Part shown: positions 42,426 to 54,257 of the stretch, one piece after another
Layout: each line of letters starts with the position of its first letter
How positions within the stretch are numbered: the first letter of the stretch is position 1
From: Chitinophagaceae bacterium
GTDB lineage: Bacteria > Bacteroidota > Bacteroidia > Chitinophagales > Chitinophagaceae
DNA length: 64,000 bases
Direction: 5' to 3'
NCBI GenBank assembly: GCA_016786885.1
Contig: JAEUVO010000052.1
Coordinates: 12,930-76,929 of the forward strand
The notes under the pieces: model-generated
Told to the model about the DNA's origin: nothing
Database searches by the model: none
The model's input: only the letters and a program-made list of their open reading frames with translations
Position numbers and translations under genes: made by a program

Positions 42426-43637
42426 TTAAAATAGCCTGGCAATCTGATACACTCCTGCTGCCAGCAAAGCACTGATAGGAATAGTAAGTACCCATGCCCA
42501 GATTAGGTTGATCGTTACTCCCCATCTGACGGCAGATAATCTCTTTGTAGCACCTACTCCCATAATGGCACCTGTGATGGTGTGGGTGGTACTTACAGGA
42601 ATCTTCAAGGCTTCAGTAATGAAAAGGGTCAATGCGCCGGCAGTTTCTGCAGCTACTCCCTCAAAAGGAGTGACTTTGGTGATCTTGGTGCCCATAGTCT
42701 TTACAATCTTCCAGCCACCACTCATGGTGCCGAGCCCGATTGCAGCATAACATGCAATAGGTACCCAGTCAGGCATTTGTTTGAAATCAGTAATTGTACC
42801 GCCAGCTATTAACGCAGCTGTAATGATTCCCATTACTTTTTGCGCATCATTACCACCGTGCCCAATACTGAATGCGGCTGATGAGATCAATTGTAACCTT
42901 TTAAACCACTGATTTGCTTTATGTGCATTCAGATTGCTCAGGTAAAGAGAAAAAGAAGCCATTACGAGCAAAATGAAGGATAACAGGATCCATTTGAAAT
43001 TTTTCGAATAAAAAATGACCTGGCTGATATAATTTTCATAATGTGTTTTTTTCGCCAGCACCTCTTTATTAAACTCAAGACTAATAGCGAGAAAAATGAT
43101 AACGAAAATTATCACACAAACGGAAAATATTTTTGATGTCCAGCCTTTTTTAAAGGAGCTTAAGAACCATAAAGACATAATGAAGGCCATCACCATACCA
43201 ATGAGGGGCGCCAGGAAAATAAAACTGGCGGTTCTGATAATGATAGATGAATTAACTGCCTCAAATCCTCCTGCTGCAATAGCTGCGCCGGCAAAACCGC
43301 CGATCAGTGTGTGTGAAGATGAAGAAGGAATGCCCAGCCACCATGTCAACAGGTTCCAGGCTATGGCTGCTATTAGGCCGGAAAAAATAACGACCATCAT
43401 ATTACCTTCCAGTATATGATCAGGCTTTACTGTTTTAGCAACAGTATCAGCAACGCCATGGTCTTTGAAGATAAAGAAGGCTATAGAATTAAATACTGCA
43501 GCCCACAAAACTGCCTGGAAAGGAGTAAGTACTTTGGTAGACACTACAGTGGCAATAGAATTGGCCGCATCGTGAAAGCCGTTGATATAATCAAATATCA
43601 GTGCTAGAGCTATGATGGTTATGAGAAAAGGTGTCAT
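42426..43637 (-). CDS. Inorganic phosphate transporter, PiT family
   Basis: NGFHDAANS, PSSSSHTLIG, HGGNDAQK, PVSTTH. Confidence 0.96.
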   Translation of the reverse strand: MTPFLITIIALALIFDYINGFHDAANSIATVVSTKVLTPFQAVLWAAVFNSIAFFIFKDHGVADTVAKTVKPDHILEGNMMVVIFSGLIAAIAWNLLTWWLGIPSSSSHTLIGGFAGAAIAAGGFEAVNSSIIIRTASFIFLAPLIGMVMAFIMSLWFLSSFKKGWTSKIFSVCVIIFVIIFLAISLEFNKEVLAKKTHYENYISQVIFYSKNFKWILLSFILLVMASFSLYLSNLNAHKANQWFKRLQLISSAAFSIGHGGNDAQKVMGIITAALIAGGTITDFKQMPDWVPIACYAAIGLGTMSGGWKIVKTMGTKITKVTPFEGVAAETAGALTLFITEALKIPVSTTHTITGAIMGVGATKRLSAVRWGVTINLIWAWVLTIPISALLAAGVYQIARLF

Positions 43638-43672
43638 AAATATTAGTCAGATGATGGAGTAATAGCTGGTGC

Positions 43673-44323
43673 TTATGCGTATTTGATGATTATTGACTCT
43701 ATCACATTACTGGCGTCTTCACATTTATCAGTAACAATCTCCATTACCTGGTATATTTCTCTTTTTTTGATTACTTCTTTGGCATCTGGCTCCGTAGCGA
43801 ACAGTCTTTCAATACTCATATCAAAAATATCGTCTGCCTGGTTTTCAATGCTGTTTATTTTCACCAAAGCCTCGGTGATATTGCGCATATTTTTCATATC
43901 CCGCAGTTCAGTTACCGCAATTTTTACCTGCTGGCAGCTTTGTTCAATTAACTCAGAAAATTTCTGCATTCCCATATCATTAGGATTTACCCGGTAGAAA
44001 TTGATCTTTTTGGCAGAAGCATAGATATAGTCAGCAATATCATCCAGCGAAGTGGCCAGGTAGTGAATGTCTTCCCTGTCAAACGGGGTAATGAAATTAC
44101 GGCCGAGTTCAGTGAACAGGTTGTGGGTCAGTTCATCATTGGCATGTTCCAGATCTTCGATCTGTATGATCAGGGCAGCTCTTTTATCAAAATCAGGTTC
44201 CGCTACCACATCTTTGAGCTGGGAGCCCATTTTGGATACGTTGTCAGCTACTTTTTCGAATAATTCATAAAATACCTTGTTCTTCGGCATGAAGATCTTC
44301 AGAAAAGAATTGAGTCCGGCCAT
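43673..44323 (-). CDS. DUF47 (PhoU-like) phosphate-transport regulator
   Basis: LEHANDE, FITPFDREDI, ENQADDIF, DKCEDA; directly upstream of PiT. Confidence 0.94.
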   Translation of the reverse strand: MAGLNSFLKIFMPKNKVFYELFEKVADNVSKMGSQLKDVVAEPDFDKRAALIIQIEDLEHANDELTHNLFTELGRNFITPFDREDIHYLATSLDDIADYIYASAKKINFYRVNPNDMGMQKFSELIEQSCQQVKIAVTELRDMKNMRNITEALVKINSIENQADDIFDMSIERLFATEPDAKEVIKKREIYQVMEIVTDKCEDASNVIESIIIKYA

Positions 44324-44420: not shown

Positions 44421-44470
44421 TAATAATAACTTAATATATAAATAAAATTAGGGTAACAATTCAATAACAA
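44421..44470 (+). promoter_or_regulatory. 11-bp-periodic TAA(C)A array (Pho-box-like) upstream of the porin
   Basis: TAATAA 44421, TAATAT 44432, TAAAAT 44443, TAACAA 44454, TAACAA 44465. Confidence 0.6.
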
Positions 44471-44504: not shown

Positions 44505-45836
44505 ATGTTTTCGGCAAAACAACTGCTGTTAAAGTACCTGTTATCTTCGCTTTTCGCCTTTTTCTTTTTTCTGAGCAGTTATTCTCAGCGATACCTTTCT
44601 GATATTGATTCTTCTTTCTTTATCAAGGATACTGTCAGGCCGGTCATAAAGCGATTCGAAAATCTGCGTATTACCGGGTATATCCAGCCGCAGTTTCAAA
44701 GGGCCCAATCAGACGGCGCTCCCTCATATACAGGGGGTAATTTTTCAGCATTCTCCAGCAGCCGGTTTATGCTTCGCCGGGCAAGGGTGAAGATCGACTA
44801 TGTGATGCCTTCAAAATTAAAATATCCCCGGGCACTTTTCTCCTTTCAGATAGATGCTACTGAAAGAGGGGTAATTGTGCGGGATATGTTTTTAAAGCTA
44901 TTTGAAACTAAGCGAAATCTTTTTTCTTTAACAGCCGGGTTGTTTGCCCGCCCGTTTGGATATGAAGTCAACCTTTCATCTGCATTCAGGGAAACACCGG
45001 AAAGAGGCAGAATGTCTCAGATATTAATGCCCTCTGAAAGAGATATCGGGGTAATGGTATCACATGAACCACAGGAAACGAAGCGACAGCGATCTCGATT
45101 TAAATTTGATCTTGGATTTTTTAACGGGCAAGGATTATCCGGTACGACAGATTTTGATAGTCATAAAGATCTTATTTCAAGAATGTTTGTACGGCCCTTT
45201 ACCAATCAAAAGATCGAGTTGTCAGGAGGGTTGTCTTACCTGAGGGGTGGATGGAAGAATGGAACCAGGTACGTATACGAAAGCGGAATTGCCGCTAATG
45301 GAGATCATATATTTATTATAGACTCCTCTGCGTCAAATCTTGGAAGATCTTCACCCCGGCATTACTATGGCGCCGATTTTCAATGCAAGTTTCGGCATAA
45401 ATGGGGGGAAAGTGAATGGAGAGCCGAGTATTGGTTTGGAACTCAACCAGGCACGACTGTTTCCACCAGTAATCCGGGAACTCTGCCAACATCAAATGGT
45501 AACCCTGTTCCCACTTATGTCCGGCATTTTGATGGGATATTCTTACTCTTTTTGCAGAATATTATTACTGCCGATCACCAACTGATGATAAAGTATGACT
45601 GGTATGATCCAAACATAAAAGTATCCAAGCTGGAAATTGGCAAACCAGGTACTAACCTTACCATAGCAGATATAAAATTTTCAACTTTAGGTATCGGTTA
45701 TTCTTATCACCTAAACCCCCAGACCAAACTCATCCTGTATTATGATATTGTGAAGAATGAAACCACCCAAATGACTGGCTATTCTGCTGATCTGAAGGAT
45801 AATATTCTGACCTGCCGCCTTCAATTCCGGTTCTAA
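44505..45836 (+). CDS. Porin, phosphate-selective O/P-like
   Basis: FMLRRARVKIDY, FQIDATERG, GLFARPFGYE, RDIG, FNGQG, C-terminal RLQFRF. Confidence 0.8.
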   Translation: MFSAKQLLLKYLLSSLFAFFFFLSSYSQRYLSDIDSSFFIKDTVRPVIKRFENLRITGYIQPQFQRAQSDGAPSYTGGNFSAFSSSRFMLRRARVKIDYVMPSKLKYPRALFSFQIDATERGVIVRDMFLKLFETKRNLFSLTAGLFARPFGYEVNLSSAFRETPERGRMSQILMPSERDIGVMVSHEPQETKRQRSRFKFDLGFFNGQGLSGTTDFDSHKDLISRMFVRPFTNQKIELSGGLSYLRGGWKNGTRYVYESGIAANGDHIFIIDSSASNLGRSSPRHYYGADFQCKFRHKWGESEWRAEYWFGTQPGTTVSTSNPGTLPTSNGNPVPTYVRHFDGIFLLFLQNIITADHQLMIKYDWYDPNIKVSKLEIGKPGTNLTIADIKFSTLGIGYSYHLNPQTKLILYYDIVKNETTQMTGYSADLKDNILTCRLQFRF

Positions 45837-45845
45837 AGCCGCACT

Positions 45846-45922
45846 TAACATTCCGGTAACATTCCCATCATAATTGGTTAACATGGGGGTAACATACCAG
45901 TAATGTAGCGGACACAACTTTG
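45846..45922 (+). promoter_or_regulatory. Six-unit 11-bp-periodic TAACAT array (Pho-box-like) plus -7 element CAACTTTG
   Basis: TAACAT at 45846, 45857, 45879, 45890; TCATAA 45868; TAATGT 45901; CAACTTTG 45915-45922. Confidence 0.8.
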
Positions 45923-50680: not shown

Positions 50681-51886
50681 TCAGTTGCGTGGGGTGTAAG
50701 CATAAGCCACTTCATACACCTTTTTGTTCAAGCCAGGTATTAATTGTCCCAGTTTTAAATCCTGTTTCTGCGGAGTGGGTTCGCAAACAGAATATTTTTC
50801 ACCATTATAGATGATAGGTGTGCCAACCGGTTTATCAAACCTTACCGCAATGGTAACATGTTCCGGGAAGGCCAGTACTATCATCGGCAGATTATAGATC
50901 TCCTTTACCAAGCAAAAGAACAGGGCTGCCCTGTCGTCACAATCACTTTGTTCATACAGGAGTGTTTGTTCAGGGCTCAGTCTTTTTTCATTTCCAAACT
51001 GCCTGCTGTCAGGCTCAAACAAAAATGCATAACGGGTGAAGCGCATCAGGAAATCGATGCCGTTTTTTTGGTTCATTCCTTTGACATGTTTTTTCAGGTC
51101 GGGAATCAGTGAGCTGTAGGTTTCTTTGCTGAGGGGAATATTAAAGTAAGATTCATAATCAACCACCGGGTAGTTGGCAAAAATTGTTTTTATCTGCGGG
51201 TTCAGCCTGAGTTTGAAATGATAATCCAGCTCGTTATAGTTGAAGCTGATCTCTTTTTCCTGGTAATCTGTTTTATTAAAATCGGGCAGATGTGTCACTT
51301 TGTACGAAAACCCTTTCACAGCGCCGGGCACAGGTATGATTACTTCTGTAAATATCTCTTTTTCAAAATTGATGATTCCGTAGTCATGATAGTTCAGGCA
51401 TATATACTGCTTGCCATTACGCAGGCGGCCCGGTATATTATAGATGTTCTCATCTGTTTGTACGTAAAATAATATCCTGTCTGCTTTTATACTCAGTATT
51501 GCATCATATCCTGAACCAGTGAGCAGAAACCATTTATACAATGTGTAGCGGTGATAATTGGCGGCTTTAGGACTTATATGCTGAGCCGTTTTCCGGATCA
51601 GCTGGTAGTAGAGCCAGTCATCCAGCCGGTATTGTTCTTTGTATTGCTGCAATGCTTTTATAAGCGATGAATAATCTCTGGTTACCATGGTTTGGTAGAA
51701 ACCCTGAACTGTTTTTTCTGACAATGAGGCAGTAAAATCGACAAATAAGGATTGTTCAAAAGGGAGGTTTACCGGTTCGCCATAAAAGTCAAAATTGATA
51801 GAGGCTTCCGTCTGCCGGGCTTCGGATGAGGCGGGGGCCAGGCAGGCAGCCAGCAGGAGTGATAATATGTAAAGCTTTGTTTTCAT
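50681..51886 (-). CDS. Secreted protein with transglutaminase-like Cys-His motif
   Basis: Signal peptide; SDCDDRAALF, AFPEHVTIAV, VCEPT motifs. Family assignment is inference. Confidence 0.7.
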   Translation of the reverse strand: MKTKLYILSLLLAACLAPASSEARQTEASINFDFYGEPVNLPFEQSLFVDFTASLSEKTVQGFYQTMVTRDYSSLIKALQQYKEQYRLDDWLYYQLIRKTAQHISPKAANYHRYTLYKWFLLTGSGYDAILSIKADRILFYVQTDENIYNIPGRLRNGKQYICLNYHDYGIINFEKEIFTEVIIPVPGAVKGFSYKVTHLPDFNKTDYQEKEISFNYNELDYHFKLRLNPQIKTIFANYPVVDYESYFNIPLSKETYSSLIPDLKKHVKGMNQKNGIDFLMRFTRYAFLFEPDSRQFGNEKRLSPEQTLLYEQSDCDDRAALFFCLVKEIYNLPMIVLAFPEHVTIAVRFDKPVGTPIIYNGEKYSVCEPTPQKQDLKLGQLIPGLNKKVYEVAYAYTPRN

Positions 51887-51980
51887 ACAGGCTCTGTATA
51901 AAGCTACAAAAACTTAACAATAAGGTAATATTAAATTTTTCATTTCTCAATAATTACCCCTAATCCGTTGTTTTAATCAG

Positions 51981-52035
51981 TAATTATTAATTAATGCGCT
52001 CGTAACAACCCGGTAATAATGATGAATGAATTTTA
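51981..52035 (+). promoter_or_regulatory. Four-unit 11-bp TAA array plus -7-like GAATTTTA, with no credible gene downstream
   Basis: TAATTA 51981, TAATGC 51992, TAACAA 52003, TAATAA 52014; GAATTTTA at 52028, 14 nt after the last unit as at 45901-45915. Confidence 0.55.
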
Positions 52036-52039
52036 CAGC

Positions 52040-52137
52040 AGTTCTTAGTCCGGTTACAAATGGCGTTAGTAAGGATCGCCGGTGGAAAATTCTCATGCAG
52101 TTGCCACCCTGGTACGTTCTGTACAGGGTGGTTTTTT
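52040..52137 (+). ncRNA. Candidate Pho-regulated small RNA (~100 nt)
   Basis: Bounded by the promoter above and by a plus-strand terminator, although both flanking genes are on the minus strand. Confidence 0.45.
52103..52137 (+). terminator. Plus-strand intrinsic terminator
   Basis: CCACCCT(G)GTAC-gttct-GTACAGGGTGG followed by TTTTTT; no U tract on the minus strand. Confidence 0.75.
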
Positions 52138-52154
52138 ATGCGGCTGACTTATGC

Positions 52155-53183
52155 TTAATAAATTTCTCTCAGAAGTATTTCTTCATCTTTCTGCTCTGCT
52201 ACAGGGAGCGAAAAGACATATTCAAGTGATTTGGCAATACTATCTGAATAGTCTTTTCGAATAACTGGCGAACTTTCCATCCAGCTATCGAAATGTGAAG
52301 TAAAATTTTTATCGATTGCAGGCAGGCATGTAATACCCAGTTTTGTAAGGGCAGCGGCATTAGATTCCTGTTCATACTGGCCGCTGATGGGGATAGCGAG
52401 GATTTTTTTTCCAAGATGAAGCGCTTCCGCAGGAGTTTCAAAACCGGCGCCGCAGATTATTCCGGAACAGGTGATAAGGCTTTTATTGAACATGCCTTTG
52501 TTGACGGGTATAAAACGGATATTTTCTTCTTGTCTTATTCTATCTGTTTCTCTTGAGAAAATTTCAAACTGAATGCCGGGGAAAGCCTGAAAAATTGATT
52601 TAAGTTGTGGTTCGCAGTAAGATGGCAGGTAAACAGTAATATGATTACCGTCTGATGGCTCTGCCTGCAGTATTTCATTTTTTATAACAGGTCCAAAAAT
52701 AAAATCGTCGTAGGATTCAAAATGAAGCCCTGCATGATATGTTGCTTTTATGTATTGTTTCAGCAGGTATTCTCCGGTTATACTTTTTTTATCGGGCCTG
52801 GGAGTATGTGGCGACTGAAAGCTGGCCTGGTGGCCAAAATGAACAGAGGGTATTTTTTTGCGGACACAGGCTGCTGATGTGATGTAATCGAAATCATTCA
52901 GGATAAGATCATATTTTTCTACCGGCAGATCCCGGATCTCCTGTTTTACCCTCAATGGTTGAATTTTTTTGATCATCTGCCAGTAATCCAACCCACCCTT
53001 GCAATTATAGTAAAGGCTGATGCCTTTGCTGCGGTATTTAATCGGGGCATCAAGTTGAAGATTACTGTTATCTCCGCTCAGAAAGATATCAACCGTTCCA
53101 TATTCCTGCAAATACGGGAGTAAGGTCATCGCCCTGCTGATATGCCCGTTACCGGTAGCCTGAACTGCGTAGAGTATTTTCAT
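52155..53183 (-). CDS. GT-B glycosyltransferase (MJ1255/Glyco_trans_1_3-like); start MKILYA at 53183
   Basis: YAVQATGNGHISRA, LNDFD, ICGAGFETPAEALHLGK, GQYEQESNA. Confidence 0.85.
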   Translation of the reverse strand: MKILYAVQATGNGHISRAMTLLPYLQEYGTVDIFLSGDNSNLQLDAPIKYRSKGISLYYNCKGGLDYWQMIKKIQPLRVKQEIRDLPVEKYDLILNDFDYITSAACVRKKIPSVHFGHQASFQSPHTPRPDKKSITGEYLLKQYIKATYHAGLHFESYDDFIFGPVIKNEILQAEPSDGNHITVYLPSYCEPQLKSIFQAFPGIQFEIFSRETDRIRQEENIRFIPVNKGMFNKSLITCSGIICGAGFETPAEALHLGKKILAIPISGQYEQESNAAALTKLGITCLPAIDKNFTSHFDSWMESSPVIRKDYSDSIAKSLEYVFSLPVAEQKDEEILLREIY

Positions 53184-54191: not shown

Positions 54192-54257
54192 TCATTTTTC
54201 GATAACTATTCGTTTATCTCTTCTTAAGATCAACTTCATATACCTGTGTCAACTTCG
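54192..54257 (+). promoter_or_regulatory. Degenerate 11-bp-periodic array plus CAACTTCG for susC
   Basis: TCATTT 54192, TAACTA 54203, TTATCT 54214, TAAGAT 54225, TCATAT 54236; CAACTTCG at 54250. Confidence 0.5.

Follow-up and report, generated by a model that had tools for sequence, protein, structure and literature searches.

The locus and its predicted gene

Here we analysed a 64,000-nt stretch of contig JAEUVO010000052.1 (hereafter the window) from the 3.98-Mb genome assembly of Chitinophagaceae bacterium (GCA_016786885.1), and in it the intergenic region 51887-52154, whose plus strand carries a predicted small RNA (sRNA) gene with an operator, a promoter and a terminator of its own (Table 1). 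An earlier interpretation made from the letters of the window alone (the sequence-only reading) had noticed in this region, between two minus-strand genes, four TAA units in 11-bp phase with a -7-like box at a 14-nt offset and, further downstream, a hairpin followed by a U tract on the plus strand only, and had suggested that they enclose an RNA of about 100 nt controlled together with phosphate-scavenging genes. Each of these elements could be located again, and the proposed bracketing of an RNA holds up on comparative grounds, since the predicted promoter, the RNA body and the terminator are kept together in about 100 genomes in which the adjoining genes differ.

Table 1. Position of the predicted sRNA gene, its parts and the related features of the window
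Feature	Position	Strand	Remarks
Operator, four direct TAAY units in 11-bp phase	51981..52027	+	predicted binding array of a PhoB/OmpR-type response regulator; occupies the -33 place
Phased units	TAATTA 51981, TAATGC 51992, TAACAA 52003, TAATAA 52014	+	exactly 11 bp apart
-7-like box GAATTTTA	52028..52035	+	14 nt from the start of the last unit
Predicted sRNA, about 95-99 nt	52039..52137	+	5' end expected at about 52039-52043
5' single-stranded segment CAGUUCUU	52039..52046	+	candidate seed; conserved; unpaired in folds
Stem-loop 1, UCCG/UGGA and GGCG/CGCC (52062-52065 with 52077-52080)	52049..52086	+	from the RNA fold; loop 52066-52076
Conserved GUUAGUAA in stem-loop 1	52065-52072	+	overlaps the loop
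GGTGG	52081-52085	+
Linker UUCUCAUGCAGUU	52090..52102	+	conserved, single-stranded; candidate second seed or protein-binding site
Predicted intrinsic terminator	52104..52137	+	hairpin 52104-52131 (8 + 3 bp, one bulged G), T6 52132-52137
Open reading frame (ORF) MMNEFYSSS	52019-52048	+	overlaps the promoter
401-aa exported protein, no Pfam match	50681-51886	-	divergent from the sRNA unit
Promoter block of the 401-aa gene	51899..51940	-	separate from the sRNA unit; 90-98% identical in congeners
Glycosyltransferase PF13528	52155-53228	-	convergent; its end lies 17 nt from the sRNA T-run
PlcP-like metallophosphoesterase with glycosyltransferase	adjoining the sRNA
PhoU_div (DUF47) and PHO4/Pit transporter	42426-44323
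Operator and box of the TonB-dependent receptor (TBDR) operon	45846..45922	+	six phased units, last unit 45901, box CAACTTTG at 45915
TBDR and lipoprotein operon	45939 onward
Phosphoesterase promoter	unit 54075, box 54061	-	14-nt offset as at the sRNA
Operator and box of the SusC-like gene (54299)	54203..54257	+	weaker; degenerate units; box 54250
SusC/D, then two beta-propeller/PF04185 phosphoesterases	54299 onward
Best PhoB homolog of the genome (227 bits; next 168) with histidine kinase PhoR	22 kb away, same contig

A phased operator at a fixed distance from the -7 box

The arrangement at the sRNA site is well above what chance would give. Arrays of at least three TAAY units in perfect phase are scarce, with only 14 in the whole genome, and in only two of them, those of the sRNA site and of the TBDR promoter, does a -7 box lie at +14. 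A position matrix built from the orthologous promoters of ten other species, with the genome under study excluded, gave the sRNA site the best score of the genome (27.3), followed by the promoters of susC (18.7) and of the TBDR (17.7), the maximum for the same matrix in the shuffled genome being 15.9. The sequence-only reading had extended the 14-nt offset to the promoters of the TBDR, of susC and of the phosphoesterase, which stands for the TBDR and the phosphoesterase, whereas susC fits only with degenerate units. When 11 congeners were aligned on the -7 box, the phylogenetic footprint showed TAAY at all four positions and a constant 14-nt offset, with the spacers drifting and the stems of the retained RNA varying, and the geometry of a Pho box (direct repeats of 11 bp at a fixed distance from the core element) was found to be conserved across genera.

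Sigma-A promoters of Bacteroidota carry a -7 element TAnnTTTG and a -33 element TTTG. The consensus of the -7 box in the family is nAnnTTT(A/G), and the box of the window, GAATTTTA, agrees with the Bacteroidota element at A2 and T5-T7 but not at T1 and G8, a weakness that would be expected of an activator-dependent promoter. No -33 TTTG element is present at the sRNA promoter, where units 3 and 4, spanning roughly -37 to -16, stand in its place. Direct repeats of one helical turn in the position of the -33 element would by analogy correspond to the arrangement of PhoB/OmpR-type response regulators, and Pho promoters are known to do without a -35 element.

Phased TAAY units were also observed elsewhere in the window. 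The block at 51899-51940 is more conserved across congeneric species than the sRNA itself (42 nt, 90-98% identity) and holds a TAACAA/TAATAT pair, 11 bp apart and inverted with respect to the 401-aa gene, which overlaps the probable -7 and -33 region of that gene. Further units (TAACAATTCAATAACAA and others) lie at 44421-44470, between the divergent PhoU_div-Pit operon and a 443-aa gene at 44505; this array has no clean -7 box at +14.

Structure and conservation of the RNA

Folding of the window copy with RNAfold yielded a minimum free energy of -29.3 kcal/mol (z = -1.68) and a structure that includes the terminator hairpin, which a simple terminator scan overlooked only because of its bulge. 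All 73 homologs have, on the strand of the RNA, a T-run behind the hairpin, and for the opposite strand there are at most three A in the 8 nt before it; on the minus strand of the window no T-run lies beyond the hairpin, as the sequence-only reading had stated. With its G+C-rich hairpin and U-run the element is, judging by its sequence, an intrinsic (Rho-independent) terminator.

Consensus folding with MAFFT and RNAalifold gave the terminator only and did not recover stem-loop 1, because the arms of the latter vary in length and sequence. A covariance model was seeded on two near-identical sequences from another genus with a hand-written structure (stem-loop 1 and terminator), followed by re-alignment. 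The seeded model identified 79 copies, including that of the window at 52039-52137 on the plus strand (30.4 bits, E = 3e-5), and the model rebuilt from these 79 sequences scored the window copy, the single one of its genome, at 61.2 bits (E = 5e-8). Standard pairs filled 91.6% of the pair cells in the model alignment, as against 72.8% with the partners shuffled and 43-55% with the partners slid by 1-3 columns. Covariation in orthologous regions, which the sequence-only reading had proposed to look for, was seen as changes on both sides in all 22 model pairs: stem-loop 1 comprises 13 of them, all with double changes and with about 86% of the cells paired, and the terminator nine, with compensatory changes in all and 97% of the cells paired. 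An alignment-free test agreed more modestly than the model alignment, with a hairpin enclosing the UUAG loop in most homologs and 9.3 enclosing pairs versus 6.7 in shuffles (mean z = -1.1; 28% of the sequences below -1.64).

The roughly 65 nt that separate the -7 box from the hairpin are conserved and covarying, and the most conserved columns are unpaired, namely the 5' segment CAGUUCUU and the linker UUCUCAUGCAGUU, the latter with a column conservation of 80-95%. The motif AGTTCTT occurs in 93% of the 75 distinct homologs, a frequency partly due to ascertainment, and AGTTCTT or AGCTCTT is also present in copies found with the RNA-only model described below. The loop of stem-loop 1 reads GUUAG(Y)A in the homologs, and the motif CAGUU, always unpaired, is present in 2-4 copies in 59 of the 75, in one copy in 14 and in no copy in two. 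Weak second matches to the first covariance model were observed near the main copy at L020:2944-3040 (-) and L089:3884-3971 (-), with E of 0.02 and 0.08, which may be degenerate paralogs or chance.

Distribution of the unit and independence from its neighbours

Of 61 related genomes searched by BLAST with the intergenic DNA, 15 gave matches, all within the same genus, and these fell into two blocks, 51899-51940 and 52003-52137, the second being the candidate RNA. A pattern consisting only of the promoter and AGTTCNT, run against one genome for each of 185,579 species, retrieved 81 loci, nearly all labelled Chitinophagaceae and including three Terrimonas isolates (T. pollutisoli H1YJ31, T. ginsenosidimutans NA20 and Terrimonas sp. 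R1) and strain IBVUCB2. Between 79 and 80 of these 81 loci run on into the same RNA, with the GUUAG(C/U)A stem-loop, the linker UUCUCAUGCAGUU, the G+C-rich hairpin and the T-run; one clear false match, in a coding region of Hymenobacter, was rejected. In the opposite direction, the 79-sequence covariance model, which contains no promoter (the RNA-only model), detected the RNA, each time as a single copy, in 33 of the 301 Chitinophagaceae genomes sampled (19 of 151 genera) and nowhere outside the family in a 201-genome sample of the order; 15 of the family matches were new to the promoter pattern, and all of them have 3-4 phased TAAY units and a -7-like box upstream. Because the searches in both directions agree, promoter and RNA predict each other, and the whole unit is, on the evidence of these genomes, a single-copy gene in about 100 Chitinophagaceae, among them many soil and water members of the family. 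Three contigs of metagenome-assembled genomes labelled Citrobacter or Bacteroides fragilis (L019, L072 and L075) also contain a complete Chitinophagaceae promoter-sRNA unit; these contigs are probably mis-binned or mislabelled.

The genes beside the unit change from genome to genome. In a tally of about 77 loci the downstream gene was convergent in 48, in the same orientation as the RNA in 26 (at distances of 29-672 nt and from several families) and absent in three. The neighbour families were the 401-aa gene (43 loci), the PF13528 glycosyltransferase (41 loci, in 36 of them convergent and often within about 20 nt), a lipoprotein without Pfam match (11 loci), a PF01663 phosphodiesterase-like protein (8 loci) and a PhoR-like kinase (6 loci, with the sRNA beside the 3' end of phoR). 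The RNA block was seen with the 401-aa gene but without the glycosyltransferase, and vice versa; the block 51899-51940 is missing where the 401-aa gene is missing, the sRNA unit still being there (for example in L012 and L013), and about half of the loci lack one or the other neighbour and retain the whole unit. Since it has its own promoter irrespective of the neighbours, the sRNA is therefore neither a leader nor merely the terminator of a convergent operon.

The properties of an sRNA gene are thus found together at this locus: its own promoter and terminator, variable neighbours, covariation and no conserved ORF in the RNA, the longest closed ORF having 0-10 codons in most homologs. Rfam 15 gave no match at the gathering threshold in the 64-kb window or in 15 diverse homolog loci, in line with the sequence-only reading, which had recognized no known family. 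In a permissive scan of 51850-52200 the lowest E was 1.8, and the top score was that of PyrR (19.4 bits, E = 2.1, cut-off 54), a match that rests on the terminator. A guide RNA of the dCas12f-sigmaE type (PMC13472631) was considered and rejected, there being no such genes adjacent and both size and architecture being different. We conclude that this is a new, previously undescribed sRNA family, although the kind of element, an sRNA under two-component control, is already familiar.

The link to phosphate

The sRNA always lies within phosphate-scavenging islands. These islands contain the kinds of genes that Flavobacterium johnsoniae induces on Pi depletion, namely a TonB-dependent transporter with lipoproteins, PlcP, a glycosyltransferase and PusCD (PMC8115612). 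Beyond the sRNA promoters themselves, 586 kb of sRNA-locus sequence contain eleven arrays of the same geometry, ten of them before orthologs of the approximately 930-aa TBDR in ten other genomes and one before a PlcP-like phosphoesterase. Neither PhoU (PF01895) nor a pst operon was found in the genome under study, whose sole PBP_like_2 protein lies in a TonB/TPR cluster, and the Pho-box test was therefore made in another carrier genome, G095. There an operon containing pstS-pstC is preceded by three TAACAT units and one TAAT with an 11-bp period, and the box TTCTTTTG lies exactly 14 nt past the last unit. The operator is present upstream of canonical Pho genes (this one pst operon) and of a PlcP-like phosphoesterase and TBDR orthologs, which supports the shared control with phosphate-scavenging genes that the sequence-only reading had put forward. 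PhoU and a pst operon are missing in most carriers as well, extra PstS being found only in G095 and G188 among 25 related carrier genomes, and phosphate uptake seems to proceed via Pit with PhoU_div and via outer-membrane scavenging systems. An operator common to TBDR, PlcP-like and pst genes, together with the location in phosphate islands, makes it likely that the TAAY array is the Pho box of this lineage and that the RNA would be a PhoB-activated sRNA.

Other observations concern the genes of these islands. Past the end of the window, at C51:77380-89588 of the same contig, lie a further TBDR, HD- and HAD-type hydrolases, a transporter, an oxidoreductase and a phosphodiesterase-like protein, then phoR-phoB on the minus strand (85927-87735), the roles in this region being guessed from N-terminal sequence alone. 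In G095 the first gene of the pstS-pstC operon, directly behind the array (L182:22-90), encodes a 405-aa protein without Pfam match, a possible phosphate channel of the outer membrane that would represent a type not yet described.

A phosphate-responsive, trans-acting RNA as the preferred explanation

Taking these results together, the explanation that we regard as probable is an independent non-coding RNA gene with a Pho-box promoter, which would be induced by phosphate limitation and would act in trans by base-pairing. Its parts differ in strength: that the RNA is independently transcribed appears highly probable, its regulation by PhoB and phosphate is likely, and base-pairing in trans is slightly favoured. 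The in silico basis covers gene structure, conservation, covariation, independence from the neighbours and the shared operator. In the proposed mechanism the TAAY array would be bound by the PhoB homolog whose gene lies in the same island at a distance of 22 kb, and phosphate limitation would switch on the RNA together with the TBDR, the SusC/D-phosphoesterase locus and the PlcP-like lipid-remodelling genes, from a promoter whose weak -7 box and missing -33 element would make it dependent on the activator. Transcription would stop at the strong intrinsic terminator. The RNA would expose CAGUUCUU at its 5' end, the linker UUCUCAUGCAGUU and, on the covarying stem, the GUUAG(Y)A loop, all three conserved and unpaired, and it most probably pairs with mRNAs in trans. 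We prefer a trans-acting sRNA because its architecture is found here: a 5' end that is conserved and unpaired, a variable stem topped by a conserved loop, then a conserved linker and finally a terminator. The binding of PhoB, the response to low phosphate, the precise 5' end and the action in trans are what we infer.

Several observations weigh against this explanation. The fold of the window copy is only mildly better than that of shuffled sequences, and covariation was counted on an alignment that had been fitted to the model and is biased towards the structure. The promoter of phoB has no clean TAAY array, only imperfect TTAAG repeats, and the identity of the regulator rests on the geometry of the repeats and on the genes that share the operator, with one pst operon examined because the clade is mostly without Pst. 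Regarding targets, exact complements of the seeds were not enriched, complementary runs to 4141 start regions were no longer than with shuffled seeds, and the genes of the island ranked unremarkably in the target search; energies of duplexes computed for the entire RNA body did not help to tell targets apart. The target prediction that the sequence-only reading had recommended thus yielded no convincing target.

The best start-region duplex has 14 consecutive pairs between the linker UUCUCAUGCAGUU and AACUGUAUGAGAA (-20.6 kcal/mol), the latter spanning the start codon of a 1060-aa amidohydrolase (contig C15:4317-4329), and the site is retained in five genomes of the genus, that of the window included. 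Pairing of the linker with the amidohydrolase orthologs averaged -12.1 kcal/mol in 15 sRNA-carrying genomes of other genera versus -7.9 kcal/mol in 12 genomes without a detected copy (Mann-Whitney p = 0.004), a comparison confounded by the carriers being also closer relatives, so that shared ancestry is possible. We regard the amidohydrolase as a weak lead and doubtful as a target. Its 5' untranslated region is unusually conserved across genera (orthologs L101, L106, L112, L122, L152-L167), and several other exported proteins that begin with MRK have the AACUGUAUGAGAA motif at their start codons as well.

A more speculative proposal, which we hold to be unlikely, is that the RNA forms the post-transcriptional arm of a Bacteroidota Pho regulon, either with the invariant linker UUCUCAUGCAGUU antisense to start regions or with 2-3 CAGUU motifs titrating an RNA-binding protein. 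In the antisense version the start regions would be of the type ACUG(C/U)AUGAGAA on mRNAs of exported proteins such as the 1060-aa periplasmic amidohydrolase, and phosphate starvation would then directly shut the translation of a defined set of envelope proteins. In either version, if true, this would be the first experimentally tractable sRNA of Chitinophagaceae and the first defined Pho box of the phylum.

Other explanations of the unit

An RNA that is regulated as described but binds or sequesters a protein, with the CAGUU motifs of the 5' end, the linker and in many homologs the loop as its sites, would fit the repeated and always unpaired occurrence of this motif in 59 homologs, as well as the lack of enrichment of complementary start regions. 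It would also suit the phylum, as Bacteroidota are largely devoid of Hfq and rely on RNA-binding proteins of other kinds. A motif of 5 nt is a weak argument, however, homologs with a single CAGUU or none amount to 14 and two, and no candidate protein is linked to the locus, for which reasons we consider this explanation rather improbable. The frequent convergence with the glycosyltransferase at about 20 nt, and a hairpin without a T-run for the minus strand, which makes read-through from that side plausible, would agree with a cis antisense partner of the plcP-glycosyltransferase operon that tunes the 3' end or the stability of its mRNA, both transcripts having the hairpin in common or each extending into the other. 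Such a role is quite improbable, since about half of the loci do without such a neighbour and retain all the conserved segments, and a purely antisense RNA would need no conservation of its 5' and linker segments.

A leader or attenuator in cis could be envisaged for the 26 loci with a same-strand gene downstream, some of these genes being phosphatase-like. A convergent gene comes next in 48 loci, the window among them, the downstream genes belong to more than one family, and the terminator is strong and has no conserved alternative pairing. The switch of conformation that the sequence-only reading had imagined, with GGTGG pairing with the CCACC of the terminator, lacks conservation, since just 2 of the 73 homologs have, in the 40 nt before the terminator, five nucleotides exactly complementary to its 5' arm. 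This switch was rejected on that ground, and a leader, riboswitch or attenuator is very improbable. That there is no plus-strand RNA at all, the hairpin ending or stabilising the minus-strand operon and the array regulating the 401-aa gene, had been named in the sequence-only reading as the scenario that would refute it, and the minus-strand orientation of both neighbours would allow it. It is contradicted by the persistence of the unit without the 401-aa gene and without the glycosyltransferase, by the separate conserved promoter block of the 401-aa gene, by the T-run, -7 box and 14-nt offset, which point to the plus strand in every copy, and by the covarying segment between box and hairpin, and we hold it to be highly improbable. 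Finally, the AUG in the conserved linker and a two-codon AUG-NNN-UAG at the loop of some homologs could hint at a small protein, the least probable of these explanations by our estimate and a very remote one, given that the short closed ORFs are not conserved and that the frame of the linker AUG enters the covarying terminator without a stop. The tiny ORF MMNEFYSSS, which the sequence-only reading had rightly thought unlikely to be transcribed, sits in the promoter and is absent from all 81 loci, and coding readings were rejected.

Significance and comparison with known systems

Bacteroidota dominate the turnover of organic phosphorus in soils and rhizospheres. To our knowledge, the regulators of phosphorus metabolism are almost all proteins, and few Pho-controlled sRNAs are known (PhoS and PsiR1). 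In the literature searched we found no Bacteroidota Pho-box consensus, no sRNA of Chitinophagaceae and no Pho-controlled sRNA of Bacteroidota. The unit described here provides a new sRNA family that has clear limits and a covariance model and is found in the genomes of about 100 species, cultured Terrimonas strains among them, and a candidate Pho box (TAAY with an 11-bp period, 14 nt before the -7 box) usable for predicting the Pho regulon in genomes that lack Pst and PhoU. It also offers a testable link between phosphate sensing and post-transcriptional control.

Within the phylum, trans-acting sRNAs of Bacteroides thetaiotaomicron such as GibS are intergenic, about 100 nt long and regulated together with nutrient-uptake loci; they end in an intrinsic terminator and have unpaired seeds. 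The Chitinophagaceae RNA resembles them in architecture and in belonging to a phylum without classical Hfq, but it has no sequence relation to them and no Rfam model matches, and they come from a different order and respond to carbon and not to phosphate. PsiR1 of Synechocystis is an sRNA induced by phosphate stress (PMC4195498; reviewed in PMC6596454). Like the predicted RNA, it is a stand-alone transcript with a Pho-box promoter, co-induced with phosphate-acquisition genes; unlike it, PsiR1 is cyanobacterial, unrelated in sequence and was detected by differential RNA sequencing.

PhoS of Bacillus velezensis and B. subtilis is induced by phosphorus scarcity via PhoP and encoded beside the pho two-component genes (PMC11522486), a position similar to that in the six genomes in which the Chitinophagaceae RNA lies beside the 3' end of phoR. 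The source of PhoS is the 3' untranslated region of phoPR, whereas the RNA described here has its own promoter and operator; the two belong to different phyla and share no similarity of sequence or structure, and regulation and function have been shown experimentally for PhoS, while here they are predictions. The closest parallel to the operator is the Pho box of the Escherichia coli type, at which class II activation by PhoB makes use of 11-bp direct repeats that replace the upstream promoter element (PMC9306846). The unit in Chitinophagaceae is TAAC(A)T or TAAY and not CTGTCAT, there are 4-6 units as compared with two, and the downstream element is the Bacteroidota -7 box. What both arrangements have in common is the fixed distance from the repeats to the downstream box and their presence before pst as well as before phosphatase and transport genes.

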